Below the pieces are notes generated by a model, which was not told the origin of the DNA, did not search any database, and saw nothing but the letters and a program-made list of their open reading frames with translations. Below are positions 7,381 to 50,400 of a stretch of DNA of 64,000 nucleotides, piece by piece. Source of the stretch: an uncultured Acidobacteriota bacterium. Its GTDB lineage: Bacteria > Acidobacteriota > Blastocatellia > RBC074. Made by a program: the position numbers and the translations under genes. Within the stretch, counting starts at the first letter, position 1. The number at the start of each line of letters is the position of its first letter. The stretch spans positions 1,440,001 to 1,504,000 of the forward strand of contig CAWCKY010000004.1 of NCBI GenBank assembly GCA_963796275.1, given 5' to 3'.

Positions 7381-7412
7381 AAACCGAACCTTCCTCAAAT
7401 AGACGATTTCCG

Positions 7413-7464
7413 GGAAAGCAAAGAAGGCGAGCGTCCGTAAAATATTATGCCTTATTTGCTTTCC
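7413..7464. repeat. 16-bp inverted repeat upstream of hpnH
   Basis: GGAAAGCAAAGAAGGC (7413-7428) pairs with GCCTTATTTGCTTTCC (7449-7464), one mismatch. Confidence 0.7.
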
Positions 7465-7509
7465 TTCGAATCGCTATTGTCGCCTCTCGCTGCATATTCC
7501 GCAAATCGA

Positions 7510-9171: not shown

Positions 9172-9460
9172 ATGATTCACCTCGCAGAGAGATACTAAAT
9201 TTCCAGATTTGTATTTTTCCATTTTCTCTTTTATCCACGGGGAAGGTCGGTTCTTTCAATGAAAAATGTAAATGCCGATGGACAATGAATCGGTTGTTAC
9301 TACGCGAAAAATAGCATACAGGTTACGAAAAACTAAATCACCACGAGAAGATGGTAGCGGTCGCTGCGCTTGCGGTAAACCACATGCGATGTTAAAAAAT
9401 GCCTTGCGATTGTCAAGTAATATCTATGATGCCAGTCTCTTAATGCAATGGAGGTATCTT

Positions 9461-9988: not shown

Positions 9989-10051
9989 ACCAGTAGGCGG
10001 TAGTCGGTTGTCAAAGAGTAGTTCTCAGGAATATACCGGCTACCGACTACC

Positions 10052-11548: not shown

Positions 11549-11608
11549 AGTTTTAATGCGATCGGGTGACGTGGCAAATGTCCGATAGTGCGGTTGTCGC
11601 CTCGTCGG

Positions 11609-12616
11609 TTACCTGGCCATCGCGTCCGTCACTTTAATCTTACCTGCGATAATATCCTTGCGAGCCTGCTCGACTTTCTCGATCACCCAATCCGGAATGA
11701 GCGCTTTATTATGCTCATCGATTGCATACCCCACACCATCGTTGTCTAACCCATAGATGTGGACGCCGCCTTTGAATTTGCCCTCGACCTCATCCTTCAC
11801 GATGCTGTAGACAGCATTATCGATTCTTTTAAGCATACTGGTCAGCACATATCCAGGCTTGATCCAATTTTGATTGGCATCGACCCCGATAGCAAATTTT
11901 TGATATGCTTCGGCGGCGTCAAAGACGCCCAATCCCGAGTTGCCGGCGGCCTGAAAGATTACATCAGCTCCCTGCTCATACTGCGAATTAGCCAGCTCTC
12001 TTCCTTTTCCCGGATTGTTCCACGCAGCATCGGTGATGCCGACATAATTCCTCAATACGCGAATGCCTGGATTGACGTGGCGGGCTCCCTCCTCGTAACC
12101 GGCCGCGAACTTATGAATCAGCGGGATATCCATCCCGCCGACGAAACCTATAGTGCCGGTGCGGTTTTTGTAAGCCGCGATCATACCGACAAGGAATGAG
12201 CCTTCGTGTTCCTTGAAGAGCAGGCTCGCGACATTCGGAAGATCGACTACCGAATCGATCAACACGAAGTGGAGCTGCGGATAGTCGGCGGCGACCTGAC
12301 CGATGATCGGTCCCTGAGCAAACCCGACGCCGGTGATCAGGTTGTACCCGTATTGCGAAAAGGCTCGCAACGCCGGCTCGATTGAAGTCGGATCGCCCGG
12401 CTCGACATCGCGCAGGACGATAGGCAGGTCTTTTTTGGCGCGCTCCACACCTACATTCGCGGCGGCGTTGAATGAACGATCATCTTTACCGCCGATGTCG
12501 AAGACGATGGCGACCTTCGTTTTATCGCCGCCGGCTTCTGCGGTGTAATCCCGCATAGTGCAGCCAGTCAGCAAGAATGAGAATGATAGTAGGAGGAGCA
12601 GCGTTTTTGTCTTCAT
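11609..12616 (-). CDS. BMP-family (PnrA/TmpC-like) nucleoside-binding lipoprotein
   Basis: Lipobox LTGC; GGKDDRSFNAAA, FKEHEGSFLVG, ADVIFQAAGNSGLG, AIGVDANQ. Confidence 0.93.
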   Translation of the reverse strand: MKTKTLLLLLSFSFLLTGCTMRDYTAEAGGDKTKVAIVFDIGGKDDRSFNAAANVGVERAKKDLPIVLRDVEPGDPTSIEPALRAFSQYGYNLITGVGFAQGPIIGQVAADYPQLHFVLIDSVVDLPNVASLLFKEHEGSFLVGMIAAYKNRTGTIGFVGGMDIPLIHKFAAGYEEGARHVNPGIRVLRNYVGITDAAWNNPGKGRELANSQYEQGADVIFQAAGNSGLGVFDAAEAYQKFAIGVDANQNWIKPGYVLTSMLKRIDNAVYSIVKDEVEGKFKGGVHIYGLDNDGVGYAIDEHNKALIPDWVIEKVEQARKDIIAGKIKVTDAMAR

Positions 12617-12692
12617 TTTTTCATTATCTGACGTCTTTCCAGGGCTTCAACAAACTCTGAAATCGGGTTCTCAGCCATCTACAACTGCTTTA

Positions 12693-13994
12693 TCAGATGA
12701 CGGCTTTGATCAGCGGCTCAAAGACTGGTTTCGCGTCTTCGATGCGGTATGCCGCGGACAATCGCGCCTCCATAAGCGCGAACCTCGATTCGTCATTGTA
12801 ATGCGCCGTTACTATCGGATCATTGGCGCTGACGCGGTCGCCCAGTTTTGCGTGAATATACAAACCGACGCTTTGATCGATCGCGTCTTCCAATTTCCTG
12901 CGGCCTCCGCCCCAATCCATCACGATGCGTCCGATTTCGCTGGTATCAATTCCCGCGACGTAACCGTTCCGGCCGGCAAGGATTACCCGTTTTTTTCCTG
13001 CCTGCGGCAGACGGTCCGGCTCGTCGAGCGTTCGCGGATCGCCCCCTTGCGCCTCGATCACAGCGCGGAACCGCTCGAGGGCGTCACCCGATGTAATCGC
13101 AGCTTGAGCTTTATTGCGGGCCCGCTCCAGGTCCTTCTCCAGCCCGCCGGCAATGATCATCCGTGCCGCGAGTTCCAAACACAACCCGGCGAAATCGTCA
13201 TCGAGATTTCCGCGCAAACATTCGATCGCCTCGAAAGTCTCGACCGCATTACCGACCCAGCGGCCCAGCGGCTGATTCATATCGGTGATGAGGGCGACGG
13301 TGCGCAGCCCCATGCGTTTGCCGACGCTCGACATCATTTCAGCCAGGGCGAGCGCACCCTCGAAATCGCGCATGAACGCGCCATTGCCCCACTTGACGTC
13401 GAGAACGAGTCCGTCCAAACCTTCGGCCAGCTTCTTCGACATGATCGAAGCGCAAATGAAAGGCCGATACGGGACGGTCGCGGTTAAATCGCGCAGCGCA
13501 TAAAGCCTGCGATCGGCGGGAGCGATCTCTTTCGTCTGTCCTATCAACGCGAGGCCGCAACGTTGGAGGACGTCATTGAATTGGTCGAGCGGGAGGTCGG
13601 TGCGAAATCCGGGTATCGCTTCTAGTTTATCAAGCGTTCCGCCACTGTGCGCCAGCGCGCGTCCGGAGATCATCGGAACGGCGACACCGCAAGCGGCCGC
13701 AACGGGCGCGATGACCAATGAGGTCTTATCGCCCACTCCACCCGTCGAATGTTTGTCTACTTTCGGCGCCGGAATGTTGTCGTGCGTGAGCACTATGCCC
13801 GAGTGGAGCATCTCCTCGACCAGATATTGCGTTTCAGCCTCTGTAAGTCCGTTCAGAAAACCCGCCATTAGCCAGGCCGCCATCTGATAATCGGGTATTT
13901 CATAGCGCGTGTATCCGCGAATCAGAAAAGCTATCTCATCGCGCGTCAGCTCCTGGTGATCGCGTTTCTTCTCGATCAGATCTTGTGGCCTCAT
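12693..13994 (-). CDS. pdp: Pyrimidine-nucleoside (thymidine) phosphorylase
   Basis: VDKHSTGGVGDKTS, MISGRAL.HSGGTLDKLE, ASIMSKKLAEG, LDVKWGNGAFM. Confidence 0.95.
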   Translation of the reverse strand: MRPQDLIEKKRDHQELTRDEIAFLIRGYTRYEIPDYQMAAWLMAGFLNGLTEAETQYLVEEMLHSGIVLTHDNIPAPKVDKHSTGGVGDKTSLVIAPVAAACGVAVPMISGRALAHSGGTLDKLEAIPGFRTDLPLDQFNDVLQRCGLALIGQTKEIAPADRRLYALRDLTATVPYRPFICASIMSKKLAEGLDGLVLDVKWGNGAFMRDFEGALALAEMMSSVGKRMGLRTVALITDMNQPLGRWVGNAVETFEAIECLRGNLDDDFAGLCLELAARMIIAGGLEKDLERARNKAQAAITSGDALERFRAVIEAQGGDPRTLDEPDRLPQAGKKRVILAGRNGYVAGIDTSEIGRIVMDWGGGRRKLEDAIDQSVGLYIHAKLGDRVSANDPIVTAHYNDESRFALMEARLSAAYRIEDAKPVFEPLIKAVI

Positions 13995-14073
13995 AGTTTT
14001 CAGATTTCGGTTTTCAGTTTTCAGTTCCGGATTTCAGCTTTTGAGTTTCTACCTCAACTGAAAACTGAAAACT
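13995..14073. repeat. Heptamer tandem repeat (TTTTCAG)n with inverted partner (CTGAAAA)n
   Basis: gttttcagatttcggttttcagttttcagtt...aactgaaaactgaaaac, between pdp and ispDF. Confidence 0.85.
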
Positions 14074-15262
14074 ATCTCCGTTCAATCAAGGCGATGACCT
14101 GTGCCGCGATTGCTTCCCCACGCCCTACTGCATCCAATCCCTCATTGGTCTTGGCCTTGATGTTGATTTGCGCCGGATCGATCTCCATCGCCTCCGCCAG
14201 TTTGACGCGCATCGCGGGGATATGCGGCATCATTTTCGGACACTCCGCCAAGATCGTCGCGTCAATATTGACGATTTTATATCCCTGCTGCCTCAGCAGA
14301 CTGCAAGTGAGGCGAAGAAACTCCGTGCTATCCGCGTTTTCCCAACGCGGATCCTGGTCGGGAAATTGCGTGCCGATGTCCCCGAGGCCCGCCGCTCCGA
14401 GCAGCGCATCGGTCATCGCATGGATCAAGCTGTCACCGTCAGAATGCCCAAATAAACCGCGATCATGCGGGATATCAATCCCCCCCAGAATTAATTTGCG
14501 ACCTTCGACCAGCCGATGTATATCGTATCCAAGGCCAGATCTGATCGCGGATTGCGCCTTCGATTCAATTGAGTCCATCAGCCTCCAAATCCCTTCGGCC
14601 TGCGATAAATCATCGGGCGTAGTGATTTTGATATTTTGCGGCGATCCTTCGACGACTGCCACCGGCAAGCCGATCTGTTCGAGCAGCAATGAATCATCGG
14701 TCGCCATCGCCGTGAGCAGGCCCTGAGCACGCGCCTCTGCATTGGCGCGCAGCAACAACTCGTAGCGAAATGCCTGAGGAGTCTGCGCGCGGTAGATCCG
14801 GTGGCGGTCGATCGTCCTCTGAATCAGCCCGTTCTCTACTTCCTTGATCGTATCGGTTGAAGGCAAAGCGAGGATAGCGGCGCCGGTTACGCGCGCGCGC
14901 GCGAGCACAGTGGAGATTTGCGCCGGCGTAACAAAAGGCCGGACCGCATCGTGGACGGCTATCAGTTCCGGTTGCCATTCCCCGGCAGCCTCGAGAGCAT
15001 TACCAATCGATTCGCTCCGCTCGGCGCCGCCGTTCACCACTCGTATGGGCTTGCGCAATTTATAAGATTGCAACAGCTCACCGAACGAACCGATCTCTGT
15101 CGGCTTGAGCGCCACAATTATCGCATCGATATCCTGACAGGCATCGAATCTTTGCAGCGTGTGAATGATTATCGGGACGCCGCCGATTTCAACGAATTGT
15201 TTTGGTTTATCTCCGCCAAATCGGGCGCCGCTGCCGGCTGCTGGAATGATGGCGATATTCAT
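14072..15262 (-). CDS. ispDF: Bifunctional IspD/IspF (MEP cytidylyltransferase / MEcPP synthase)
   Basis: IIPAAGSGARFGGDKPKQF, HDAVRPF, AQTPQAF, NIKITTPDD, then GLGYDIHRL, GHSDGD, GDIGTQFP, NIKAKTNEGL. Confidence 0.96.
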   Translation of the reverse strand: MNIAIIPAAGSGARFGGDKPKQFVEIGGVPIIIHTLQRFDACQDIDAIIVALKPTEIGSFGELLQSYKLRKPIRVVNGGAERSESIGNALEAAGEWQPELIAVHDAVRPFVTPAQISTVLARARVTGAAILALPSTDTIKEVENGLIQRTIDRHRIYRAQTPQAFRYELLLRANAEARAQGLLTAMATDDSLLLEQIGLPVAVVEGSPQNIKITTPDDLSQAEGIWRLMDSIESKAQSAIRSGLGYDIHRLVEGRKLILGGIDIPHDRGLFGHSDGDSLIHAMTDALLGAAGLGDIGTQFPDQDPRWENADSTEFLRLTCSLLRQQGYKIVNIDATILAECPKMMPHIPAMRVKLAEAMEIDPAQINIKAKTNEGLDAVGRGEAIAAQVIALIERR

Positions 15263-16699: not shown

Positions 16700-17806
16700 C
16701 TACCCTTTCGGCGCGTAATATCCGGCGCGGGCACGGGCGGCATACCCAGGCTTCTTAATTCTGACGCTGAGTTTGCGGAATGACCCGTCACGCTTCTCGT
16801 TGGTCGAGTAAAACCCTAACGTATACTGGGTGCGAAGTTGTCGGGCCAGATCCGCAAATGTCTGGTCGAGCTCTTTCAGAGATTCTTGATCTACCTCTTC
16901 TCCGAGCGCACCGGGGGTGGCCTTGGGTTTATAGATATATCCCCCGGTTTCAGCGCATAAAGTTTCGAGAGCACGCTCGCCGGCCAGGTCGCGAAGGTTC
17001 TGGGAGTAGTAATAACGATTTCCGGTGAATAACGCGAAGATCACGGCATCGGCTTGTTGAGCGTTCGCTAGAGCTTGAAGTAATCCTTTCCCGCTCGTCG
17101 TATCACCTCCGTCAGAAACGATGACGATTATGCGGCGGCCCTTCGCCGGCTTGAGATAATCGGAAGCGAGAAATATTCCGTCGTAGAGCGACGTGGCGCC
17201 CTGAGCTTTGAGCTGCATAGTGGCGCTGACGAGCAGCGGAATTTTGTTGGTGAAATCCTGCAGGCAAGTGATATCAGTGGAGAGCGAAAAAAGGGCGGCG
17301 CGGTCCTGCGGGCGAACGATTCGCTCGAAAAATTTGGCGGCGGCGCGCCGCTCGAATTCGATCTTCTGCGAAACGCTCAAACTCGCGTCGAACAACATGA
17401 CCAACCGCAATGGCAGGTCGGCATCACGGGCGAAATTTGCTATTTCCTGCCGGACGCCGTCTTCCATAATCTCAAAATCTTCGCGCTGTAGATCGATCGG
17501 CGGTTTCATATCTTTCGAGCCTTTCGCGTCTACCGGCAACGCGTTGGGCGATTCTTCCGACACAGAGGTCACGACCGTCACCAGATCGCTGGCGATCCGT
17601 ATCGTCTCGTCGCTCGTTTGAGGCCTTTGTTCGGGCAACCTGATGCGCGGTCGTTCCGGGGCCTTCCCCGGCTTCGACTTTTTCGGATCCGGCGCCTGCC
17701 GCCCGCTCTGGCTTCGGGCTGAATGCAAGGTAGATAAAAGAATTATCGCGGTAGTTGATAGAAAGGCAATTTTTGTGATCAATCTCGTCTGGCGAGATAA
17801 TTTCAT
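16700..17806 (-). CDS. VWA-domain secreted protein (acidobacterial VWFA-related family)
   Basis: Signal peptide; DLQREDFEIMEDGVRQEI; MIDAS-like LFDASLS; TSLYDGI, VSDGGDT; QLRTQYTLGFYS...ARAGYYAP. ATG 17806 overlaps the trmFO stop (ATGA). Confidence 0.9.
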   Translation of the reverse strand: MKLSRQTRLITKIAFLSTTAIILLSTLHSARSQSGRQAPDPKKSKPGKAPERPRIRLPEQRPQTSDETIRIASDLVTVVTSVSEESPNALPVDAKGSKDMKPPIDLQREDFEIMEDGVRQEIANFARDADLPLRLVMLFDASLSVSQKIEFERRAAAKFFERIVRPQDRAALFSLSTDITCLQDFTNKIPLLVSATMQLKAQGATSLYDGIFLASDYLKPAKGRRIIVIVSDGGDTTSGKGLLQALANAQQADAVIFALFTGNRYYYSQNLRDLAGERALETLCAETGGYIYKPKATPGALGEEVDQESLKELDQTFADLARQLRTQYTLGFYSTNEKRDGSFRKLSVRIKKPGYAARARAGYYAPKG

Positions 17807-19183
17807 GACGCCTCCACCAAATCTGTTTTCGGACTGTCCGCCGCCTCCCCAATCTCGGCAAGCCACGAGTGAAAAGCCTTCAGACCTCGCTCGACTTGCA
17901 TACGGTGACGATCGGCCTTCTTCCTGGTCTGCCGCCTTTCTTCCGGTTCGAGCGGCGGCAAGAGGGCGAACGTCGTGTTGGCAGGTTGAAAATTCTCCGC
18001 ATCGGCGTGAGCCAGATAGTAAGTCAATGATCCAGTCGCCGATTCTCGAGGCGGCGCAACCGCCTCAAGTCCCCGCGCAAGCCTTGCCGCATTGATACCC
18101 GCTATCATTCCTGTAGCCATCGCCTCGGTGTAGCCCTCGATTCCCGATATCTGTCCCGCATAAAGAACGCGCGCATACCGGCGCATTTGCAAGGTCTCTT
18201 TGAGCAGCTTCGGTGAACAGATAAATGTATTACGATGCATCTGGCCGAAACGGATGAAATCAGCCTTTTCTAATGCCGGAATTAATTGAAGGATTCGTTT
18301 CTGATCGCCATATTTGATATGGCACTGAAATCCCACGATGTTGAAGGCTCCGGCCATCAGATTCTCGAGGCGTAACTGAACACAGGCATAGGGTTCTCTT
18401 CCCGTGCGCGGGTCGATGAGGCCGACGGGCTTCATTGGCCCGAAGCGTAAGGTATCGCGACCGCGGTGCGCGAGGACTTCGATCGGCAAGCATCCCTCGA
18501 AATATTTCTCCTCGTCATCGAGACCTTCGTGGGGTTTGACGGTTTCGGCAGTGAGCAGGGCGTCGATGAAACGGTCGTAATCTTCCCGCGTCATCGGGCA
18601 ATTGACATAATCGTCTCCGCCCTTACCGTACCTTGCGGCGCGAAATGCTACATCAAAATCGATCGTCTCGCCATCCACGATGGGAGAAATCGCGTCGAAA
18701 AAGTAAAGGCCGTCATCCCCGGTCAACCGGCCAATTGCGGCGGTAAGCGCCGGAGAAGCCAGGGGGCCCGCGGCTATCACCGTGGTTTCGCCGGGTTTAT
18801 CAGCATTGATCTCGGTCACCTCTTCACGGCAGATTCTCGATATTCGGATGATGCGACAGGTATTCGGTCACGAGTGCGGAAAATTTTTCGCGATCGACCG
18901 CGAGCGCGCCGCCGGCGGGAACAGCGGCCTGCTGGGCCAAATCGATCAGCAATGAACTGCCCGCCCGCAGCTCGTCTTTCAAGAGCCGGGGAGCGGTGTC
19001 CGCCAGGTCAGATTTGAGCGAATTGCTGCACACCAGTTCTGCCAGATTGCCCGTCCGATGCGCCCCGGTGGATATTTTCGGGCGCATTTCGAAAAGCCGG
19101 ACCTTGATGCCGCGCCGCGCCGCCTGATGGGCGGCTTCCGAACCCGCCAGGCCGCCGCCTATGATGTTGATAATCTCGCTCAT
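17803..19183 (-). CDS. trmFO: Folate-dependent tRNA (uracil-54) methyltransferase TrmFO, split by one frameshift near 18835
   Basis: [20 protein letters not shown] (18824-19183); [44 protein letters not shown] (17803-18819). Removing one A restores [14 protein letters not shown]. Confidence 0.92.
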
Positions 19184-19307
19184 GGAGCGGAATAATAGCA
19201 GATGCCCAGTCCAATTGCCTTAGTTCAACCTCTCCGACTAAAATCATCTGTTCGGTCTTCAGGGCCGGGATCGCGATTCTGATATCCAATTGAATTTCCA
19301 AGATTGA

Positions 19308-36142: not shown

Positions 36143-36148
36143 ATAATC

Positions 36149-37386
36149 ATGCCACATTCTCTCTATCTTGACTGTTTCTCGGGCGCCAGTGGCGATATGC
36201 TGATCGGCGCGCTGATCGATGGCGGTCTCGACTTCGATCTCCTGCGGGACGAGCTGAAAAAACTCGGCGTCCCAGGATACGATCTGAGCCTGACCCGCGT
36301 TGACCGGAGCGGAATCTCCGCATCGAAATTCGACGTGAATCTGCATTCACACGATCATGACCACGAACATGATCATCATCATCATCATCACGATCACATC
36401 ACGAGCACGAGCAAAGGTCGCTCTCGGCGATCAAGAAAATAATCGCATCATCGACGCTTTCCGATGGAATCAAAGAGCGAGCTCAAACGATCTTTCAGCG
36501 GATCGGTGAGGCCGAGTCGAAGATACACAACATCCCGATTGAAACTGTTCATTTCCATGAAGTCGGCGCGATCGATTCGATCGTCGATATCGTCGGCGCA
36601 TGCATCGGCCTCGATGCGCTGAAGATCAACCGGATCATCTCTTCGCCGCTACACGTAGGCTCCGGAACATTCAAATGTGCCCATGGCATCTATCCTGTGC
36701 CCGGTCCTGCAACGGCGGAGCTCCTGCAAGGGGTGCCGATCTATTCCAGAGATATCGAGGGTGAATTGGTTACGCCGACCGGCGCAGCGATCATTTCAAC
36801 GCTCGCTTCGAGTTATGGACCGATGCCGATGATGAAGATTGATCGGATAGGGTACGGCGCAGGCACGCGCACTTACCCGAATTTTCCCAATGTTCTGCGC
36901 GCAATTATAGGTGAGTTTGAATCGGACGCAGATCAGACCCCTGAAAAGATCACCGTCATAGAGGCCAACATCGACGACCTCAATGCCCAGGTATTCGGAC
37001 ATTTAATGGATAAAGCATTAGCCGAGGGTGCATTGGATATCTTCTACACGCCGGTGCAGATGAAGAAGAACCGGCCGGGCGTGTTGCTGACATTGCTCTG
37101 CAGACCGGAAGACCGCCTGAAGATGTGCGAGATCATTTTTCGTGAGACAACCACGCTCGGCTTGCGGTTTCGCGATGAACGACGCGAAATTTTGCGGCGC
37201 GAACACTTGATTGTTGAGACGATCTATGGCCCGGTCAAAATTAAAGTAGCGCGCGGACTAGACGGGCGCGTCGTTAATTACGCGCCGGAGTTTGAAGATT
37301 GCCACGCCGCGGCTGAGTTACATGGCGTCGCCCTACGAGACGTTCAGATGGCTGCGCTTAGCATCTATGCACAGAAGAATGCCTAG
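36149..37386 (+). CDS. larC: Nickel-pincer cofactor biosynthesis protein LarC, frameshift in the His-rich tract (~36396)
   Basis: LDCFSGASGDMLIGAL; poly-His; the shifted frame continues VHFHEVGAIDSIVDIVG, CAHGIYPVPGPAT, ELVTPTGAA, EANIDD, QMKKNRPG, ETTTLG, APEFEDC. Confidence 0.9.
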
Positions 37387-37791: not shown

Positions 37792-37857
37792 AGCACAAAA
37801 TTTTACAGCTCAGGATTTGTCATCAAACATTCGTGCTCTTTGTCGCTCTTCATTGAC

Positions 37858-38567
37858 GTTCATTCAATCACCACCCGATCAGTCCCGCCCCGCCCAAAAG
37901 TCTCCGGATGATACATCTCTTCGGCCTTCGATGGCGGCACCACGAATACTCCCGGCGTCGTCGCCCGTGCCACATATGAATAATTATGCACTCCCTCCCA
38001 TAGTATCGACGCAAACGCCTCCACCCGCTCGTCCCTCATATTCTGATGCTCGAACCATGGCCGTCTCCACCACCACCAATTCCCCGTACTCTGCTCCTTC
38101 GGGTCCTGCGCTATCGGCCCCGTCGTCGCCAGCGCCGGGTTCTGCGCTTCCAGCCCCGCCGGCAGCGGATCTACCAGCGCCACGTGATATCTCCTCGCCT
38201 GCGCCACCATCGTCAGCCTCACTCGCACCTGCGCCCCTGCCTTGATCCGCCACGTCCCGTCCTCCTCCCGCCTCACATCGTTCGCGTTATCTATCGCTTC
38301 GTATACTCGCGTCACCGTGAATCCGTAGTCCGCCGGCTTCAACTGCAGGCTCTCCGGCGCATACTTCATCCCGATCCGGTAATACATTCGCCCATCCCCC
38401 TCCTTGCTCAATGCCAGGTTCTGCGGCCCTCCCTCTCTCATCAGATAACTCATCGGCACTTCGATCTGATGCCGCTCGGTAGTACGCCCACGGAACTCGT
38501 GCCCCCCAGCATAGGCCTCTCCCAGCCATGCGCGCGCCACGAAATCCGGCGTGGCTTTTTCATAGAC
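37858..38567. repeat. 710-bp direct repeat, copy 1 (3' end of A2M-B)
   Basis: Matches 44269-44978 at offset 6411. The track ORFs in several frames are identical, and the first mismatch I found is 38568/44979. Confidence 0.9.
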
Positions 38568-41500
38568 CGCGAAGTATCGATCGAGGGCCAGCAGGACGAA
38601 TGCGTTCTCCTGCGTGTTGCTCCAGCGCCCCTGTTTGCGATGTGCCAGCAGACCGCGGACGATCTTGGGGATGAGGTCGTTCTTCGGATCATCGCCGATC
38701 AGGGCTTCCAGGATGATGGCGTCGGCGCGGCGGTCTGAATGGAGGATCAGATGCGCGCCGTCCTTGTATGCGGTCGTGAAGTGAGCCGCGGCCGCCGTCT
38801 CTTCAGCCCGGTTGCCGAGATGGCGGCGGATGGCTGCAATTTCTGCTTGCGAAGCGGGCATCGCCGGACAGAACGGGTAACAGGAAGCCGAGGGCTTCGA
38901 GGGGCATATTCTCGATCCCGCCTGCCTTCGCTATCTGCGCGCGCGCTTCCTTCGCGTCACGGTCATCCATCAGCCGTCTGACATAGAGCGCATAGGCGAT
39001 CAGCAATCGCTTCACCTCAGCTCCGTACCAGTCCGGGATATTATCCTCAATATCGTCCAGATAATCCTGCGAGCTTTCAAGCATCGACTTGGGGACATCG
39101 AAGCCCTTCGCACTGGCGCGCTGCAGCGCGTGAGCAACGTGTATGCTCAGGTAAGGCCAGGATTCTTCTCCACGCCGCCAGAAGCTGAAGCCGCCATTTT
39201 CGTTCTGCAATCTGCGCAATCTCTCTATGTCACTATTGCCCGAGGCGATCAATTCATCGGCTTTCGGCAGCCCCTTGGCGTCGAATGCCGCGAGCACGTC
39301 GCGTAGCGCCGCAATCGCCAGAACACGCGATGCGAGCTGCTCTGCGCATTCGAATGGATAGTTGGTCAGGTAGATCACGGCATCGGTCAATGCTTGCAGT
39401 TGCGTCGACGAGGCCGTGACCTCGAGCCCGCCGAATTGTTTAATCGCATCTGACGGAGCTTTGACCGGCTGAATGAGAGCTCCCGCATCGACCTCGCCAT
39501 AAGTCGCAAATGCTTCGGTCGTCGTCGGAGTCCAGACCGGCAAGCTGATCTCCGCAGCATCCGACCATCTGCCGGATGCGCCGACGATCTGGAAGCGCGC
39601 CTTGCCGGGTTGCGCGGCCGCCGCAGGGAATCGCACTTCGACTCGATCATTGGCGGGCACTGTAACGCGCCGGCCCTTCACGCCCGTCAATCGCGCGTTG
39701 ACAGCGCGCACTGCCAGATCGACCTGCATGGGTTTATCAGACTGATTTTGAACGACCACAGGCAATTCAAATTTATCGCCGAAATTGAGGAAGCGCGGCG
39801 GTGATGGCCGCACCATCAGCGGCAAACGCGCGGTGATTGCAGATTCAGTCGAGCCGAATTGCTTTTCGCCCGCGACAGCCACAACCATCACACGATAGCG
39901 CGTCAGATTGTCAGGTAATTTGACTTTGATCTTTGCGCGGCCGTTTATATCAGTTGAGACTGATGGGGCAAAAATGGCGAGCGAGTTGAAGTCGATCCTG
40001 GAACGAACCTTGCCCACTTCGCCTGTACCAGTGATCGCCACGGCTTCCGTTATTCCACCTGGAGAGACCGCATATAATGATTCTCTAGAAAAGGCTCTCA
40101 GTTGTAACGGCAATTCATTCACCTGCTTCTGCTGCATATCTCTGATCTGGGAGATCAATTCATTCGGGTCGGCAAGCAAAACATCACTCCGAGAGTCGCG
40201 ATTGCCAACATCATTTCCACGTTCTTGATAAAAACTGGCGACCGGATCGACAAGATCGTATTTCGTCAAAGCCAGCACGGCCTCATCGACCACGATCAAT
40301 GCCAACTCGCTGCCCTTCACCGGCTTGCCGGTTGCATCGCGAACCTCGACATCGACAAATGTTGTGCCACCAGGTTCCAGGAGATTATCGCGGGGAATCG
40401 CTCTCACGGTCAGCTTGCGTTTTAGCGGCGGGATAGAAAGCTTGATGGAGCCTGATGCGGAGGCCGGCCGTCTGGGCAATTGTTCCAGCGCTCTCCCCTC
40501 GCTATCTGTCCGAATGGCAGAGCCTACCAGATCGACCTGAACATATATGTTCGGGACATAATCGTCTTTGATCGGGATCCGTAGAGTGTGCGTTGTCGAA
40601 TCCATGGTGAAACGTTCAGACATCAGTAAGCCTGACCTGCGCAAGGTGACAATACCTTCGGCCGGACCGAAGGGAGATTGAACGAGTATCTCCGCTGTCT
40701 CGCCTCCCTGGTATTCTTTGCGATTGGGAATGAGTTCCAACTCTTCCCTTGCGAGATTGCGGCCCGGCGGCAGCGTTCCTTCCCCGGCAACCCACAGCGT
40801 CAATTCGCTTTCGTTGCGGCGCTCCTTGTCATCGATGATCGCGGCATTGAGCGATACTGGCCGCCCGCCCTTGTTTCGAACCGGCACTTGACTGGATCTG
40901 CGGCCGACCTGACAACGCATTCCTGCGGATCGGTTTCGCGTTCATTCCATTTCCCTCTTTCAAATACCCAGTTAATCCGCAGGGCGCGCATCCTGATCTC
41001 ACGGCCGGCGATCGCCTTTCCGTCGAGATCGGTGACGATCGATTCGACGATAAACGGATCGCCTTTCTGCACGAAAGTGCGAGGGCTCCGCAGTCCGACA
41101 TAGAGCTCCGCCGTATGCACAATAAAATCTTGCGATGAGCTTATTACCTGTCGATTGACATCCTGCAGGTTTGCTGAAGCAGTGATGACTGCCGGACGCG
41201 GAGGATTTATCGCATCAAAATCGATCCGCAAACGATGTTTGCCGGATTCATCGGTCCGTCCCTTAAACGCTTTCCTATTGTCGCGTTCATGAGCCGATGC
41301 GTTCCAATACCACCACGGAATCCATTTCCCAAATATAAAATCGCTCCGGTTCGGCGGTGTGAAGTATGACGGCCTCGAAACTACAGACCAATCCACTTCG
41401 GCGCCGGGCAGCGCGCCCCCGGTATAATAATTCGCCGCTGCCGTCAACTCCGCGCCTGAGCCCGCGAAATGAGGGCCTTCGCTCGCCGTCACCTTTACTT

Positions 41501-43952
41501 CAAATTCCGGACGGCGAAACTCCTGAATCTGAAACCCATGGATATAATCGCGGCCATAGATGTATCCGTCTCCGCTTTCGGCTTTGAACTCGATCTTCGC
41601 ATATCCGGAATTGGCAGTTGCCGGCACTTTAAAAGAAAAATGGAATCCGCCCAAAGCGTTCACATTCAATGTGCCTTCAGCGATCTCGTTCTCGAGCGAG
41701 TCCTCGATACTGTAAGTAAAATTACGCGCAGCCCCACCCGGCAGCATGACATCACCTGAAGGAGTGAGGCTGATTCGGCGAATCCAGCCCTTGATGTGTA
41801 CATCTTCGCCCGGACGATAGACGCCGCGGTCATCGAAGACATGCCAGCGCAGAAAATCGCCTGTATTTCGTTTGTTCCAGCCAGACACTCCATAATGACC
41901 GTAATACCGGCTGGGATATTCGAGGAGCAGAGCGGCGTCATTACCTTTTCGTGCAACGAGAAATCGATAAAGTTGGCTGAACCCGGCTTCAATCTTAGCT
42001 AACCCGTTGGTAGAGGTCTCCTGATGAGACCTTCCGATCAGCCTTGCGGCCGGAGTCAGATCGCGAAGCTCGAGTTGTACGCCGGCGAGAGGCTTGCCGT
42101 CTTTGAGTGAGGTAGCCCAGGTGAGCAGCTCACTCCTATCTGAAAAGACATCCACGCCGATGCCGGTCGACTGAATCCAGGTGGCAAAGAACTGCTTGCC
42201 GTATATATACTCCGGCATATACATATCAGGTTCGACGAACAATAAGGCGTGGCCCAGACCTTCATTCAACGCAGGCTGAAGATCGATCGGTGTCTCGACG
42301 AACTCGTCCGGCTTCGCGTCGATCTTGATGGTTTCAGAAAATATACGGCGGCCGATCTCCGGAAATGACAATCGTTCCCTATTGCGCTGTTTTTCGTACA
42401 TCGCCTGGATGGCAGCCATTAACTTGCCATAATCTTCGGGCACAACTGCATACAATGCCACTTTCAATCTCTCGTGATTAACGCTGTAGATCGAGATGCG
42501 TTTCTTCGCTGCGGGATCAAGCACGACGAAGCCGTTGCCCGGAACGCTCAATCTGGCCGGCATCGAACCGATCCCGAAATTCAGAGTGGCGTTCTCGCCG
42601 AGCGTCTGGCCGAAGACGTCTTTGATCGAGGCATCGAGCGTGATCCGGTAATTTGTACGGGGTTTCGGATAGCCCTTTATGGTCAGCGTGTCATCGCGTT
42701 CACGACTCACGCTCTGCCCTTCGAGTTTCGGTTCAATCGTAATTTTGTCCGTATCGAAATCCGCGGGTAAATCATTACTAAAGCGCAACGACCAGGGAGA
42801 AAGAGGGGAACAATTCTCTTTTCTATCGGGATACTCGCACACGCCATAGCTAAGATGGAGCGGGCCATAAGTATCGAAATCGAAATTCTGTTCTACCGCG
42901 GTCTTACGTGGCCCCTCGGCTGATGGCGCGCCGGCTTCAACTGAAACAATGAATGAGGTATCGGCCGGAAGAAGCTGATCCGACTTTTCACCGGGATCTT
43001 TGCCTACACGAAAAGCCATCCAGTGATCTTTCACCGCATTCGATGACAACGTGTTCACATCATCATTCGCTTTGATCTCTTCAGCGGTCGCCAACCGGAG
43101 CGGCCATTCATGGTTATTTGAACTCAAAGAGATAAATTTCAGAGCGGCCGCCGGATCGATGCGCTGATCGAATTCAATGAAGATCAGCGGGTCGCGAGGT
43201 TGCTCGTCATCGTCGTCGTCTGGATATCTCGATTTCACTTCGAGCAACGAGGTTGAGAAGGTCCATCGCTTCGTTGAAGAGAGCGTGCCGCCGTTCGTTG
43301 ATTTCGTCCCGGCGGGAATTTCAACCGTGTATTCCGTCGACATCGGAAACCGGCCCTCCGGCTCGAAGAGCAATGTCTTCGTCCCGAGCCAGCGCCATCT
43401 CCCATTCGGTTGCGGCGAGAGTTTGACCGGTACATCTTGAGCCGCCAGATCCGAATATGACGTCACCGGGACAATCGGTTGCGAGAATGTGACACTCAGA
43501 TGCGGCGCAATCGGCACTTCGCCTTCGGGCGCGAACCGCAGGACTTCCAGAGGGCCTGGCGAGACTTGATCCGGCGCAGTCTTCCGATCGGATGGGGGAA
43601 AGTGGTTGATGATCGTCTGTCCCGTGCGCGGCGGAGGGAGAGAGCGATCGCGTAATGCGAACTCTTTCTCGTCAGAGCCTACTGATTTTATCGGCCTCAA
43701 TCGTTTAAGAAGCGATTGAATGGCTATCTCAGTAAGAGGTTTGGTTGGTGCCGTGGCGATCTGCTGTTGCGTCTTCGATTCCGACTCTTTCTTCCCATCG
43801 CTCAGCCGAATAACCAGGCCTTTTTTATCATTGTTATCTTGATTGCTGCCGCCTTGACCGATTGCGCCCGAGAGGTTTGAGACCAGAAAGATGGAGGCGA
43901 ACAACCAGAATAGCACAAACAGCCGAGTCGAGATATTTTGAGAGGAAGGCAT
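37860..43952 (-). CDS. Bacterial alpha-2-macroglobulin (thioester type), copy B, ~2,030 aa, frameshifts near 40850 and 38857
   Basis: ORFs 40800-43952, 38803-40920 and 37860-38861 are consecutive parts: signal peptide, Ig-like domains, FDDRGVYRPGE, EFRRPEFEV, VDEAVLAL, LPDNLTRYRV, thioester YPFECAEQ (CAEQ 39337-39348), YVARATTPG...AEEMYHPE. Confidence 0.9.
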
Positions 43953-44076
43953 AGGCGAAGGTCCTCATTCTTTCTTCAAGTTGACTGCAGGAAATTTGCC
44001 ACTAAAAACACAAAAAAGTGAAAAGGGCACAAAGGGTAGTTCTGCAATCATCCGTGGTTTGCATTATTCGAGCTGA

Positions 44077-44165
44077 AGAATCAGTACCGCGAGCGGTAGC
44101 GAGCGAGCCTTCATCAGTGGCTGATTGATATAATCTCGCTCGCTACCGCTCGCGGTACTGATTCT
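44077..44165. repeat. 31-bp perfect inverted repeat (REP doublet-like) between the two A2M genes
   Basis: AGAATCAGTACCGCGAGCGGTAGCGAGCGAG (44077-44107), 27-nt spacer, exact reverse complement at 44135-44165. Each arm contains an internal TACCGC-GA-GCGGTA hairpin. Confidence 0.9.
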
Positions 44166-44268
44166 CTCTTCTGATCTGTCAAAGAGCCTTCCAAGGTTAA
44201 GGGTAGCGCCAGCTTATTACTCTATTTGTGGTTTTCGTGGTGAATCTTCCTCACGAAGAGGTATTCAG

Positions 44269-44978
44269 GTTCATTCAATCACCACCCGATCAGTCCCGCC
44301 CCGCCCAAAAGTCTCCGGATGATACATCTCTTCGGCCTTCGATGGCGGCACCACGAATACTCCCGGCGTCGTCGCCCGTGCCACATATGAATAATTATGC
44401 ACTCCCTCCCATAGTATCGACGCAAACGCCTCCACCCGCTCGTCCCTCATATTCTGATGCTCGAACCATGGCCGTCTCCACCACCACCAATTCCCCGTAC
44501 TCTGCTCCTTCGGGTCCTGCGCTATCGGCCCCGTCGTCGCCAGCGCCGGGTTCTGCGCTTCCAGCCCCGCCGGCAGCGGATCTACCAGCGCCACGTGATA
44601 TCTCCTCGCCTGCGCCACCATCGTCAGCCTCACTCGCACCTGCGCCCCTGCCTTGATCCGCCACGTCCCGTCCTCCTCCCGCCTCACATCGTTCGCGTTA
44701 TCTATCGCTTCGTATACTCGCGTCACCGTGAATCCGTAGTCCGCCGGCTTCAACTGCAGGCTCTCCGGCGCATACTTCATCCCGATCCGGTAATACATTC
44801 GCCCATCCCCCTCCTTGCTCAATGCCAGGTTCTGCGGCCCTCCCTCTCTCATCAGATAACTCATCGGCACTTCGATCTGATGCCGCTCGGTAGTACGCCC
44901 ACGGAACTCGTGCCCCCCAGCATAGGCCTCTCCCAGCCATGCGCGCGCCACGAAATCCGGCGTGGCTTTTTCATAGAC
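44269..44978. repeat. 710-bp direct repeat, copy 2 (3' end of A2M-A)
   Basis: Same sequence as 37858-38567. Confidence 0.9.
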
Positions 44979-47900
44979 AGCGAAGTACCGGTCGAGTGCC
45001 AGCAGGACGAATGCGTTCTCCTGCGTGTTGCTCCAGCGCCCCTGTTTGCGATGTGCCAGCAGACCGCGGACGATCTTGGGGATGAGGTCGTTCTTCGGAT
45101 CGTCGCCGATCAGGGCTTCCAGGATGATGGCGTCGGCGCGGCGGTCTGAATGGAGGATCAGATGCGCGCCGTCCTTGTACGTGGTCGTGAAGTGAGCCGC
45201 GGCAGCCGTCTCTTCGGCCCGGTTGTCGAAATGGCGGCGGATGGCTGCGACCTCTGCCTGCGAGTTGGCATTCCCGGAGATCACGGGTAAGAGCCAGCCC
45301 AGCGCTTCAAGCGGAAGCTTGTCCGCGCCGCCTGCATCCGCGATCAATCCGCGCGCCTTCCCTGTATCCCGGTCGCCCATTCGATTTCTGACATAGAGCG
45401 AGTACGAGATCAGCACGCGCCGCGTCTCGATGCCATACCAGCTTGGAATGTGCTGCTCGATGTTGCGAATATAATTCTTCGATCTTTCGAGCATCTCTGG
45501 TAGCACATCGAACCCCTTCTCCTTAGCGCGCTGCAGCGTATGAGCAACATGAATGCTAAGGTAGGGCCATGAGTCATTATCACGCTGCCAGAAACCGAAG
45601 CCTCCATCTTCATTCTGCAGCCCGCGCAATCGCTCCATATCGCGTTTGACCGATGCAATCAATTCATCGGCTTTCGGCAACCCCTTGGCATCGAAGGCCG
45701 CGAGCACGTCGCGCAGCGCCGCGATCGCCAGAACTCGCGATGCGATCTGCTCCGCGCATTCGAACGGATAAGTAGTCAGGTAGATCACGGCATCGGTCAA
45801 TGCTTGAAGTTGCGTCGATGAAGTCGCGATTTCGAGCCCGCCGAATTGTTTGATCGCATCCGACGGCGCTTTGACCGGCTGAATGAGCGCGCCGGCGTCG
45901 ATTTCGCCATATGTCGCAAAGGCTTCAGTAGTCGCGGGAGTCCAGACCGGCAAGCTCACTTCTGAAGCGTCCGACCATTTGCCCGATGCGCCGACGACCT
46001 GGAAGCGCGCCGTGCCGGGTTGTGCGGCAGCCGCAGGGAATCGCACCTCGACACGGTCATTTGCGGGCACAGTGACGCGGCGGCCCTGGCCTGACGCCAG
46101 TTGAGCGTTCGACGCGCGCATAGCAAGTTCCACCTGCATCGGCGAATCGGTCTGGTTTTGAACGACAACCGGCAATTCAATCTTATCGCCGAAGTTAAGG
46201 AAGCGTGGCGCGGATGGCCGCACCATCAGCGGCAAACGCGCGGTGATTGAAGATTCGGCCGAACCGAACTGCTTTTCGCCCGCGGCAGCCACGACCATCA
46301 CTCGATAACGCGTCAGGTTGTCGGGCAATTTGACCTTGACGCTAGCGCGGCCGTTGGAATCAGCGGTGATTGTGGGAACAAAGGCAGCGAGCGCATTGAA
46401 GTCGAGGCGGTTGTGAATCGGGACCTCGGATTGCTTTGCACTGTCCGAAAATGCCTCTAATTTTCCGGATAATCTGTCCATTGCTCCCGAATCCGCCCTC
46501 ATTGCCATATTACTCAGAGCCCTCGACTCCAGAGCAAGAGGCTTGGCTACAGCTTGTGCCTCAGCCCTATCACCTCCTCCTGATCCCAATTGGCTGATCA
46601 AATCATCAGCCCTTCCGAGCTGCACTCTGCTCCGCAGATGATGACTCCTCACGATATCACCACGAATAGCGTAAAAAGTATTGAGCGGATCGGCCAGTTT
46701 ATAATTGGTCAAAGCCAGCACTGCTTCATCAACCACTACCAGCGCGACATCGCCGCCGTTCACCGCTTTGCCATCCGCATAGCGCAATTCGACGTCGACG
46801 TAAGTCTCCGCCCCCGGCTCGGTCTCTCTATCTCTCGGAGTGACGGTGACAGCCAGCTTCCGTTTCGCCGGCGGGACCGAAAGATCCAATGTCCCGGACG
46901 CAAATGCCGGCCGTTTCGGCAATTTCGCGTCGGGCTTGCCTTCGCTGTCGGTCCGCGACGACGCTCCAACCAGATCGATCTGCACTTGAAGATTGGGCAC
47001 GAGGTCATCGCTAATCGGAATCTTCAGAGTGTACGAGGCGCTCGACATCGTAAAACGCTCGCTCTTCGCTATACCGGTATGCCGCAGCGTCACCACGCCC
47101 TCGGCGGGAAAGAACGGCGCCTGCACCAGGATCTCCGCCGTCTCGCCCGATCGATAATCTTTGCGGTCCGGTATCAACTCGACCATCTCCTGCGCCAGAT
47201 CGCGTCGCGGTGGCTGCTTGCCGCCCGCCACCCAGACCGTCATCTCGCTCTCATTGCGGCGCTCGCGGTCGTCGATGACGCTGGCGGTGATGCGGTACAC
47301 TCCTCCCTCTTTCGTCTCGAAGCGGCATTTCACCGGATCATTGCCCGATTTGATTATGCAGTCCTGCGGGTCGGTCTCCTGCTGGCGGTATTCGCCCTTC
47401 TCGAAGACCCAATCGATCATCGCCGCGCGCAACCTGATCTCGCGGTTGGCGATCAGCTTGCCGTCCAGATCGCTGACGATCGATTCGACGATGATCGGTT
47501 CGCCCTTCTGCACGAACAAACGCGAGCTGCGAATCCCGACGTACAGTTCCGACGGATGCACCAGCAGATTGATCGAGCCGCCGAAATTCTGGCGATTGAC
47601 ATCCTGCACATTCGCATAAGCCGTGATGTTCGTCGGCCGCGGCGGATCGACCGAATCGAAATCAATCCGCAGGTAATGCTTTCCGGCTGCGTCGGTGCGG
47701 CCGGCGAACTCCTGGGTTTTCGAGTTTCCGTCGACACCGTGGTAACCCCACCACGGTATCCATTTGCCGAAAATGAAGTCGCTGCGATTGGGGGGCGTGT
47801 AATTGGCCGGCGTCGCCGTCACGTTCCAGCGGACCTCGGCATTAGGCAGACCGCCGCCCGCATAATAACTGGCCGCGGCGGTCAGATTGGCGTGGCTGCC

Positions 47901-50400
47901 GATGAAATGCGGCCCCTGGCTTGCGGTCGCCTTCACCTCATACTCGGGCCGGCGAAACTCCTGCACGCGGAAATAATGATAGTGGGCATCACCTTCAACC
48001 GCACCAGCCTCCGTTGCCTTCATCTCCAACAACCCGTAACCCAAATTCATCGTCGGCGGCAATTTGAAAGACATATCGAATCCGCCCAGAGAATTGACTC
48101 GGGCCGAGCCTTTCAGGACCTCGTTGCCGCGAGAATCCTTGAGCGAGTAGCTCACATTCTCCGCACTACCGAACAAACCCACGTCGCCCTTGGGCCCACC
48201 GATTATCCGCCGCAGCCAGCCCTTGAGGTGGACCTCTTCTCCCGGTTTGTACATCCCGCGGTCATCGAAGACGTGCCAGCGCAGTGAATCCCTCAATCCG
48301 CGGTTCACCCATCCGGTTTGAGTGTTCCACCAATCGAAGCTTTCGGGCAGGATAGCCAGGTCTTTACCCTTGCGCGCGATGAGCAGTTTCCGAACATCCG
48401 ACTGCCGACTGCCCCGACTGCCCCGACTGGTTCGGCAATTCCATACGCGCCAGGCCGTCATTTCCGGTCTTCAGGCCGTCTCCTGCGCTGGCGCTCGATT
48501 TTTCGTCGACGATCTTCATCTGCACATCGCCGAGCGGCTTTCCATCCCGGAGCGATGTCGCCCATCCGAGCAGGTTCGTTTGATCGACGAATGCATCGAG
48601 CCCGATATCCGTCGCCTGAATCCATACCTGAATCGAGCGCCGCTCCCACTGAGTCTTAGCCGGCTGCACTGCCTCGACATTCAATATCATCTGGCCGAAA
48701 CCTTCATTCAGTGCCGGTTTCAGGTCGACGGCAGTTTCAGCCAGATCGTCGGGCTTCTCCGCGATGTCGATGACTTTCGAATAAACCAACCGTCCGATCG
48801 CCGGCATCGATCTTTGCCGATTCCCCCGCTGATAGCCGTATTGCATCGCCGTTCGCATAAAATCGTTGAACCGATCCCAATGTTCGGGACCGACCGAATA
48901 AAGGCTGACTCTCACTTGCGAATGATTGATGCTGAAGATAGAGAACCGCGGCGCCGCGAAGGGGTCGAGCACGGCCAACCCCTCGATGGAGGCAGCCAGA
49001 TTGGGCGATGCCGGCCCGACGTCGAAGGTGACTGTTTTGTTCTCGCCGAGCGTCTGGCCGAAGATGTCTCGCAGCGAGGCGTTGAGCGTTACTTTATACG
49101 TTGTGCGTCCCCGGCTTGCGCCCTGAATATTGATCACCTCACCATAATTATTCACCTTCATCCCCGGCAATTCCGGTTCGACGCGAATCTGGCTCTTGTC
49201 GAAGGCTTTCAGATCGAGTGGGTTGTTGAATTGCAATGTCCATGGGAATCCCGGTTCACAACCTCTCTGATAGCCTCCGCGCTCATGCTTGACGATCTGA
49301 AGCGGGCCGTAAGTCCGAAACTCGAAACTCTGTCTGGATGTTGTGACGCGGGATCCTTCGACGGATGGCGCCCCGTTCTTGAGCGTTACGGCGTAATTGG
49401 CGCCGGTCAATAGAGGATTGTTTGCCTCGCCGCCCGTCGCTCGAAGGGCAATCCAACAATCCTTGTTCGCGATGCTCGCCATTTGTCGCGCGTTATCATC
49501 GGTTGCGACCTCTTCCGCGGTCGCCATCCGCAGTTTCGAATCACGATTCGATGTCCTGAGCTGAATGTATTCAAGCAGGTCTTGCGGATCGATGCGCTGA
49601 TCGAACTCGATGAAGATGACCGGGTTGCGAGAATGCGGTGAGCCGACGGGATACTTCGTTTTTATCTGGAGCGGCGGGGTCGAGAATGTCCATCTCTTAG
49701 CGGCAGCGAGCGTCCCGCCGTTTGTCGATTTGGTCCCGGCGGGGATTTCAACCGTGTAATTCGTCGCCATCGGAAACCGGCCTTCCGGTTCAAACAGCAG
49801 GGTCTTCGTCCCGATCCACCGCCATTTGCCCTTCGGCTGCGGCGAGAGTTTGACCGGGACATCGAGCGCGGCCAGGTCCGAATTCGACGTCACCGGGACC
49901 ATCGGTTGCGAGAACGTGATGCTCAGATGCGGCACGATCGGCACTTCGCCTTCGGGCGCGAACCGTGCGATTTCCAGAGGGCCTGAAGAAGCCTGATCGG
50001 GTGCGGTCGCGCGATCAGACGGCGGGAAGGACTCGCTGATTGTCTGACCCGTGCGTGGGGGAGGCAGAGAGCGATCGCGCAATGCGAAATCCTTCTCGTC
50101 ATCGGCTTCCGATTTGATCGGCGGCAATCGCTTGAGCAGGTTCTGCGCGGTTTCGTCGGAGAGAAGCTCGGCTGGCGGCGCGGAGATCTGCGGCCGTTGT
50201 TCGGACTCAGCCTTACCCTCGCTCAGGCGAAATATCAGGCCGTCCTTGTTTCCCGTGTTACCTTGCATTATGCCCCTCTGACCTCGACTGCCGCTCGCGT
50301 CCGAAAGAAGAACGAACGGCAAGACCAAGATGCATAAACAAATCAACAGGAGCGAGCGATCAGCGACAAATTTCAGGCGATACATCGGCAAAAATCTCAC
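44271..50400 (-). CDS. Bacterial alpha-2-macroglobulin (thioester type), copy A, ~2,040 aa, frameshift near 48405
   Basis: ORFs 48364-50400 and 44271-48461 join at a QSG repeat. Same domain order as copy B; thioester YPFECAEQ (CAEQ 45747-45758). Confidence 0.92.

Follow-up and report, generated by a model that had tools for sequence, protein, structure and literature searches.

Among the bacterial alpha-2-macroglobulins (A2Ms) so far described, those closest to the proteins considered here are the type I proteins YfhM (ECAM) of Escherichia coli and the A2M of Salmonella. Their trap mechanism is set out in the available portions of PMC4498604 and PMC5764988; in the first of these, the RDDR and EXMY motifs of ECAM are said to hold the thioester domain (TED), and later to bind the cleaved bait. 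Type II A2Ms, such as Pseudomonas aeruginosa MagD and E. coli YfaS, are described in the available portion of PMC5764988 as lacking the CxEQ thioester and as sitting in a six-gene magABCDEF operon. Here, these systems are compared with a co-oriented tandem pair of A2M genes, A and B, found in a metagenome-assembled genome (MAG) of an uncultured soil member of the Blastocatellia (Acidobacteriota; 9.46 Mb in 7 contigs). The pair lies in a stretch of 64,000 nucleotides, the whole of which is called the window (assembly GCA_963796275.1, contig CAWCKY010000004.1, positions 1,440,001 to 1,504,000 of the forward strand).

Gene A, the downstream copy, encodes an A-type A2M of about 2,031 amino acids (37860-43952, minus strand), with two apparent frameshifts and three open reading frames (ORFs; 40800-43952, 38803-40920 and 37860-38861, all minus). 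Gene B, the upstream copy, encodes a B-type A2M of about 2,041 amino acids (44271-50400, minus), with one apparent frameshift and two ORFs (48364-50400 and 44271-48461, both minus). Both proteins were read through their breaks with an X, which gives lengths of 2,031 and 2,041 residues.

Like YfhM/ECAM and the Salmonella protein, A and B have a CxEQ motif with an upstream tyrosine, an architecture of macroglobulin (MG) domains, bait region, A2M domain, TED and C-terminal MG domain, motifs of the RDDR and EXMY type, and (in a predicted model) an N-terminal fold resembling MG0-NIE-MG1. They differ in being about 390 residues longer at the N-terminus, in having neither a lipobox nor a pbpC neighbor, and in forming a tandem pair. 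With MagD and YfaS they share the general form of a large, apparently exported macroglobulin with a bait, and some of their relatives are named “YfaS” in databases. However, A and B have the thioester motif and no adjacent mag-like genes, and on these grounds a type II identity was rejected.

Animals offer a further comparison. In their A2M and thioester-containing protein (TEP) clusters, such as A2M-PZP and the insect TEPs, the duplicates are most divergent at the bait or hypervariable region and conserve the machinery of the thioester. The present pair differs in being bacterial, in consisting of two genes at a conserved housekeeping locus, and in that conversion of the conserved modules is demonstrated; unlike the animal proteins, A and B are not known to be connected with any immune system. 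That tandem bacterial paralogs evolve in concert through gene conversion is, of course, a general phenomenon, and the pair resembles it in having greater likeness within a genome than between orthologs, a drop in synonymous differences, and segment trees that conflict. Here, however, the conversion is segmental. It spares the bait and the MG body, and the paralogs stay distinct while their modules are shared.

On the evidence that follows, it is probable that A and B are two intact, ancient paralogous thioester A2Ms whose modules have been homogenized by gene conversion, and that their frameshifts are consensus errors.

Mosaic similarity of the pair

A sequence-only reading of the window had described the similarity of the two genes as mosaic, and the DNA identity profile bears this out. 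Identity is 80-85% in the Big_5 domain, about 50-60% in the middle MG domains and about 40% in the bait; it rises to 75-90% near the thioester, drops to about 65% past it, and reaches 97-100% over the last ~1 kb. The copy of this shared end in A (37858-38768, minus) comprises a core of 710 nt identical to B (37858-38567) and 201 nt with 5 differences (38568-38768), a tract of 911 nt in total; the copy in B lies at 44269-45179 (minus). Past 38768, the two genes are about 84% and then about 65% identical. At the other end, identity stops 2-8 nt beyond the stop codon.

The bodies of the two genes are old. The tree of residues 241-1240 places A with the A-types of two related genomes, G013 and G015 (Shimodaira-Hasegawa-like approximate likelihood ratio test, SH-aLRT, 100), and B with G002, a genome of the same genus (100); the body of A also groups with the A-type of a further genome, G076. 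Two full genes on one contig are found, among 87 genomes of the family, only in the source genome (G000), G013 and G076, and the order in G076 (cinA, B-type, A-type, larC) is that of the window. By these trees and gene orders, A and B are ancient paralogs at a conserved cinA-A2M-larC locus.

The proportion of synonymous differences (pS; segments here and below are in B residue numbers) breaks this uniform history into pieces. Between A and B, pS is 0.66-0.76, that is, saturated, across the body and bait (residues 250-1340), 0.13 at residues 1715-1774 and 0.02 at 1775-2041. Two other segments are intermediate. In residues 130-249, pS is 0.41 between A and B, 0.52 between B and G002, and 0.58 between A and G002; in residues 1354-1593, it is 0.41-0.42 between A and B and 0.59-0.66 between B and G002, with A to G002 spanning 0.58-0.67 over both segments. 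These two are older conversion tracts, one in Big_5 (B 49678-49947; A 43251-43520, minus) and one from the A2M domain to the first half of the TED (B residues ~1354-1593; B 45620-46340; A ~39210-39930, minus; coordinates approximate, having been converted from residue numbers).

Codon trees made segment by segment conflict along the same lines. A is sister to B for residues 130-249 (ultrafast bootstrap, UFBoot, 75), 1354-1593 (88) and 1730-2041 (100), and B stands with G002 to the exclusion of A for 250-1240 (100) and 1594-1714 (81). The approximately unbiased (AU) test rejects A and B together for 250-1240 (p 6e-6). A separate A-type group fails the same test in segments 1354-1593 (p 7.8e-5) and 130-249 (p 0.015); for 1594-1714, p is 0.28. 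For 1730-2041, the separate A-type group is rejected even when A is left out (p 0.0058), and when G015 is left out too (p 0.0043). Because, in the tree of the tail, the two genes of G013 pair with each other (support 71) and the A-type of G076 joins the B-types of its own genus (82), the tail clusters by genome rather than by paralog type. This was a check that the sequence-only reading had proposed.

A second lineage repeats the pattern. The proteins P0007 (B-type) and P0050 (A-type), each ~90% identical to those of the window, are identical to one another from residue 1728 to the end (314 amino acids). Over residues 1730-2041, A and B have 1 difference and P0007 and P0050 have 0, while 18 of 312 positions separate B from P0007, and the same 18 plus one more separate A from P0050. 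The tail that P0007 and P0050 share is therefore set apart from that of the window by the same 18 positions, about 6%, and paralogs within a genome are here more alike than orthologs between genomes. Tails that are identical within each lineage and 6% apart between lineages require conversion later than the split of the lineages. Judged from the sequences, then, the tail shared by A and B is the product of gene conversion. The recombination between paralogs that had been put forward as a mere “perhaps” is thus supported by segment trees, AU tests, the pS profile and the identical tails of another lineage.

The borders of the tract nearly coincide in the two lineages (residues 1724-1739 in the window and 1727 in P0007/P0050). 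They fall where identity declines to about 64%, the point at which homologous exchange would be expected to end. In both lineages, the residues of 1601-1711 that distinguish the paralogs are conserved. In the latest conversion, B was likely the donor and A the recipient, because the shared tail is placed next to the B-type of G002 in the tree, the other A-type tails standing on long branches, and because its GC content at third codon positions (GC3; 0.74 in the tract) is nearer that of the B body (0.68) than that of the A body (0.59-0.62).

How such a pair might work can be proposed by homology to YfhM/ECAM and the Salmonella A2M. Each protein would be an exported monomeric snap-trap. A protease would cut the exposed, disordered bait; the C-terminal MG domain would then free the thioester domain, and the Cys-Gln thioester would bond covalently to the protease. 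With unrelated baits and diverged MG bodies, the paralogs probably meet different proteases. Protease trapping, export and differing specificities are all, of course, inferences. Conversion, in turn, repeatedly homogenizes Big_5, the part from the A2M domain to the thioester and, above all, the last ~310 residues (the second half of the TED and the C-terminal MG domain, a placement that follows Pfam coordinates and the YfhM alignment). It is confined to stretches still alike enough to recombine, and spares the MG bodies and baits. Such conversion alone yields variable baits on a shared end, with no need for a dedicated mechanism.

Variability of the bait

The bait-region segment of A runs from VDEAVLAL to RIDFNSLA (39976-40290, minus) and that of B from VDEAVLAL to RLDFNALA (46386-46733, minus), with a hypervariable core in B at roughly 46431-46568. 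The two are 23-28% identical as proteins. Over 104 aligned members of the family, the entropy of bait columns (2.2-3.0, with many gaps) is the highest outside the signal region. The 46-residue core was compared among seven B-type orthologs: its median identity is 0.22 (range 0.07-0.40), with gaps in 21/21 pairs; the rest of the protein, in the same 21 pairs, has a median identity of 0.908. Between A and P0050, the bait segment is 84% identical and its core 0.74, without gaps. The A-type and B-type baits thus evolve at very different rates, because the first pair retains an ungapped core at 0.74 and the second set a gapped one at a median of 0.22.

The ratio of nonsynonymous to synonymous change (dN/dS) points the same way. 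For the 12 close ortholog pairs with DNA, dN/dS in the bait core is 0.32-1.19 in ten (the other two being saturated, and the coordinates being based on alignment), against 0.11-0.18 in the rest of the gene, and pS in the core is often above that of the flanks. At least relaxed constraint is indicated, with hints of diversifying selection or allele exchange; neither is proved, because bait cores are short and hard to align. In these comparisons the bait is the fastest-evolving part of the A2Ms, in line with the variable baits proposed by the sequence-only reading.

Diversification of the baits by a diversity-generating retroelement was considered and rejected, no template repeat being found in the own genome: a blastn search of both baits against it (word size 7) returned the baits themselves and chance matches of <=51 nt.

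Frameshifts and competing explanations

The three frameshifts bear on whether these genes are intact. Break 1 of A (40848-40851, minus) has one base fewer than B, at ~40850, and break 2 of A (38853-38859, minus) has one base more. The break of B (48398-48406, minus) lies within a CAGTCGGGG/CAGTCGG tandem repeat coding a QSG loop, the length of which varies among close orthologs. Four soil-metagenome runs were aligned to the A/B region for independent sequence. In one X3 contig, of about 95% identity, a single base is added exactly at 40850, and one X1 contig ends in 13 loose letters identical to window 38853-38866 less one base, a reading that keeps the frame and agrees with P0050; these alignments gave no indel call at 48398-48406, the B break. 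P0050 itself, an A ortholog of 2,023 amino acids (84-94% identical by segment), is intact and reads through both A breaks, and the B orthologs P0006-P0011 (2,024-2,047 amino acids, 87-91% identical to B) are intact as well. Outside the three breaks, neither A nor B has an in-frame stop.

The same assembly breaks genes that a living cell cannot easily lose. Both rpoB and rpoC (G000 C6:1266086-1274588) match only in pieces over several open frames, some with internal stops; one uvrA paralog is likewise fragmented, and valS is whole. Because rpoB and rpoC are also shattered, because short-read contigs are in frame at the A breaks, and because close orthologs are intact, all three breaks are most likely errors that an indel-rich long-read assembly left in its consensus. 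This is firm for the A sites and probable for the B site. No gene of this genome should be called a pseudogene without support from reads, given how many indel errors the assembly carries. As to the B break itself, its surroundings (48375-48429) form a 9-nt tandem repeat for a Q-S-G loop, and P0010 has a longer G-Q-T repeat there.

Three frame breaks in 12.3 kb might nonetheless mean that one or both genes are real pseudogenes in a decaying array. Second copies have been lost in relatives (G020 has one gene; in G002, 73% complete, none was found), one metagenomic relative, L107, has a second copy that is partly deleted, and the B break falls in a slip-prone repeat. Yet short-read contigs contradict both A breaks, in-frame stops are absent elsewhere, both genes have low dN/dS when set against orthologs, the assembly breaks essential genes too, and close orthologs are whole, all of which makes real decay improbable here. 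More improbable still is the idea that the identical 3' ends were made by long-read assembly or polishing, for example as a collapsed repeat written twice. This assembly is, of course, rich in errors, assemblers may give near-identical repeats one consensus, and the 710-nt core is not bridgeable by short contigs. However, X1 contigs link the tract to A-specific sequence at either end. At the 5' border they bridge A-specific sequence into it, and over 259 aligned bases one has 11 mismatches to B, exactly as many as there are A/B differences in the span; at the 3' border, a 30-letter loose end equals window 37828-37857, the flank of A, and so joins the tract to that flank. An artefact is unlikely because both borders of A's copy occur in separate contigs. 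Further, stretches 85-90% identical beside the tract were not merged in the assembly, and the independently deposited P0007 and P0050 share an identical tail with 18 changes of their own.

If the conversion is real, it could still be that the shared end is kept by selection, through a common partner or clearance route, for instance, and that the pair forms a repertoire of variable sensors on a constant effector. This was the view of the sequence-only reading, and it seems unlikely, although less so than decay or artefact. It can point to identical tails and near-equal borders in two lineages, to the clustering of 3' ends within the genome of G013 and within the genus of G076, the alternative being rejected by AU, to the conservation of paralog-specific residues 1601-1711 in both lineages, and to the presence within the tract of RDER and EEMY, the counterparts of motifs that in ECAM contact the thioester domain and the cleaved bait (PMC4498604, in the portion available). 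Other tandem pairs, however, do not repeat it. Their C-terminal protein identity is just 63-91% in 18/18, and in 21/21 no DNA stretch of >=100 nt reaches 93% identity; even the pair of G076, orthologous to that of the window, has a tail identity of 0.83. The border, where identity drops to about 65%, is that expected from homology-dependent conversion alone, and no partner gene lies at the locus. A designed “constant effector end” is not shown as a general feature, because none of the 21 other pairs has a recent conversion tract, and homology-dependent conversion without selection for a shared end accounts for the pattern equally well. Of the proposed diversified repertoire, then, bait variability and recombination stand, and the designed end is not supported as proposed. 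Similarly, the high similarity in the first Ig-like domain and around the thioester is there as had been reported, but it largely mirrors the conservation profile of the family itself, over its 104 aligned members, with older conversion added. Apparent “100%” DNA matches between neighboring genes in five other loci (L065, L073, L078, L090 and L091) were discarded, being overlapping stop-to-stop ORF coordinates rather than conversion.

Several points weigh against the account of intact paralogs homogenized by conversion. The break of B sits within a repeat in which genuine slippage could have occurred, and none of the reads resolves it. X1 may be the MAG's own sample, and so would be independent of the consensus method, not of the sample, and its short contigs cannot bridge the identical 710-nt core. 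That P0007 and P0050 are neighbors rests on each being recorded on a contig of 113,843 bases; a metagenome scan for DNA of such ~90% orthologs returned only relatives at most 77% identical. For the older tracts, UFBoot values of 75 and 88 are moderate, and lower pS in conserved regions can come partly from codon constraint. In G013 (L006, contig C430) the order is reversed, the A-type being upstream and the B-type adjoining larC, and we have no explanation for this. In no bait does dN/dS clearly exceed 1, and the alignment of the core is unreliable, so that diversifying selection is not established. Finally, protease trapping is, for every member of the subfamily, a prediction.

The subfamily, the locus and their significance

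The sequence-only reading had called both genes thioester A2Ms, and ORFs, Pfam and the motif confirm it. Pfam places Big_5, bMG3, MG2, A2M_BRD, A2M and bMG10 in both proteins, with bMG3 just below its cut-off and MG2, A2M_BRD, A2M and bMG10 above theirs. The thioester CAEQ lies within YPFECAEQ in each (A 39337-39348; B 45747-45758, both minus) and aligns to the CLEQ of E. coli YfhM; YPFECAEQ pairs with YPYGCLEQ, and the protecting tyrosine four residues upstream is retained. The pattern Y..xC.EQ is kept in the 12 commonest octapeptide forms, which account for 103/104 aligned family members. The C-terminal MG domain carries RDER, of the RDDR type (A 38019-38039; B 44430-44450, minus), and EEMY, of the EXMY type (A 37911-37922; B 44322-44333, minus); across the family, the forms listed are RD[ED]R and EEMY.

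The best solved relatives are YfhM (5a42, 4ziq, 4rtd; E about 1e-30) and the Salmonella A2M (4u48), with similarity limited to the C-terminal ~720 residues of A and B. For the first 660 residues of B, an AlphaFold model from a 41-sequence alignment (mean predicted local distance difference test score, pLDDT, 83) predicts a helix, then a low-confidence linker of ~110 residues, then beta-sandwich domains that include Big_5; its best match is MG0-NIE-MG1 of ECAM (4zjg, E 5.7e-12). A single-sequence fold of the C-terminal 709 residues (pLDDT 34.7) was unusable.

Each N-terminus combines a charged start with a hydrophobic stretch, read by eye as a Sec-type signal. The absence of a lipobox, also claimed earlier, is borne out: neither N-terminus has a cysteine preceded by G, A or S. 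Most Blastocatellia orthologs also have no lipobox, and the homologs of Kofleriaceae and other Myxococcota have TSCGG or AACGG. The plain hydrophobic helix and long low-confidence linker of the Blastocatellia proteins suggest a tethering or secretion different from that in Kofleriaceae/Myxococcota. Anchoring to the inner membrane by a lipobox cysteine describes YfhM, of course; it does not define the type I family. By motif and domain content, A and B are type I (thioester) bacterial A2Ms of a long (~2,035 amino acids), large and uncharacterized subfamily.

At least 3,649 protein clusters match this subfamily at E <= 1e-100, under names as varied as alpha-2-macroglobulin family, Ig-like domain-containing, MG2 domain-containing, DUF6049 and YfaS. 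No NCBIfam family was matched at E <= 1e-5 by four pieces of A and B or by the G002 ortholog. Longer relatives exist (P0001-P0004): some are 2,475-2,866 amino acids with fused leucine-rich-repeat domains (51% identical), and others, at ~4,300 amino acids about double the usual length, may be fused or read-through tandem pairs.

A match to B is present in 37/41 related genomes, and a match to the N-terminal part of A in 55/87 genomes of the family. The unpublished genome G004 supports none of the statements made here. Copy number varies. G078 has three genes on separate contigs, G015 has a single A-type, and G020 has one gene only between cinA and larC; G002 has a B-type only, with nothing A2M-like in the 1.7 kb downstream. 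The metagenome contig L107 has the same layout as the window, with an intact B-like first copy and a second copy (12113-15005) that lacks roughly residues 420-1498, and with them the bait and thioester motif; it looks like an array in decay. Tandem A2M pairs occur in 17/80 genome-contig loci, mostly in Kofleriaceae or other Myxococcota. In another family of Blastocatellia, G027 (L013-L015, contigs C143 and C169) carries long A2M genes in one array of two and another of at least four, the copies being 40-60% identical pairwise, with other genes of 0.4-1 kb between some.

One flank of the pair holds larC, ykuD and an amine oxidase gene, and the other a cinA-like gene, hisS, aspS and mutL. Among these neighbors in the window there is no pbpC, as had been noted; for type I A2Ms such a neighbor is frequent but not universal. 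Two other genes of the window are split, larC (36143-37386, within a His-rich repeat) and trmFO (17803-19219), further signs of an assembly prone to indel errors. Between A and B lies a near-perfect hairpin with a stem of ~30 bp (44079-44162, no strand; RNA fold z = -8). Its arm has 181 BLAST matches over 6 contigs of the own genome and a depth of 135-444 in two soil metagenome runs, and it looks like a dispersed palindromic element of the repetitive extragenic palindromic (REP) kind. A scan for promoters and terminators gave 4 promoter-like sites, where 6.9 were expected, and 12 terminator-like sites, where 13.3 were expected.

The genome has a third thioester A2M on another contig (C6:714000-733000 stretch, at 5658-15122), of 1,616 amino acids, with GCTEQ, and distant from A and B. 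It is flanked by a DUF1175/NlpC-P60-like gene and by one for a 1,195-amino acid Transpeptidase-SpoIID protein, a cell-wall setting that resembles the pairing of A2Ms with penicillin-binding proteins without being identical to it.

No paper was found on tandem bacterial A2M arrays, on bait hypervariability among close orthologs, or on conversion between such genes, the available part of the review PMC12939704 included; Budd et al. (2004) and Doan and Gettins (2008) may list such contexts. A preprint on the CAGE complex (10.1101/2025.09.22.677704) was considered as a relative and rejected, the complex having, in the part available, an unrelated fold and no thioester.

What, then, might the arrays be for? 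One tentative suggestion is that those of soil Acidobacteriota and Myxococcota form a protease-sensing repertoire. The B-type core would be a strain-specific hypervariable cassette; it would be driven, or exchanged, more quickly than by neutral drift, as part of an arms race against proteases from competitors or predators. The bait of the A-type would be held for a fixed target, and conversion would keep the snap-trap modules interchangeable. Whatever the merit of that suggestion, the subfamily is very large, occurs in soil bacteria apart from pbpC, and is often found in tandem arrays. Bait cores about 22% identical in proteins about 91% identical elsewhere, together with thioester and tail modules homogenized between paralogs, make a concrete, testable case for animal-like diversification of traps in bacteria. 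The locus also supplies natural bait variants on near-identical scaffolds, for use in studies of specificity.

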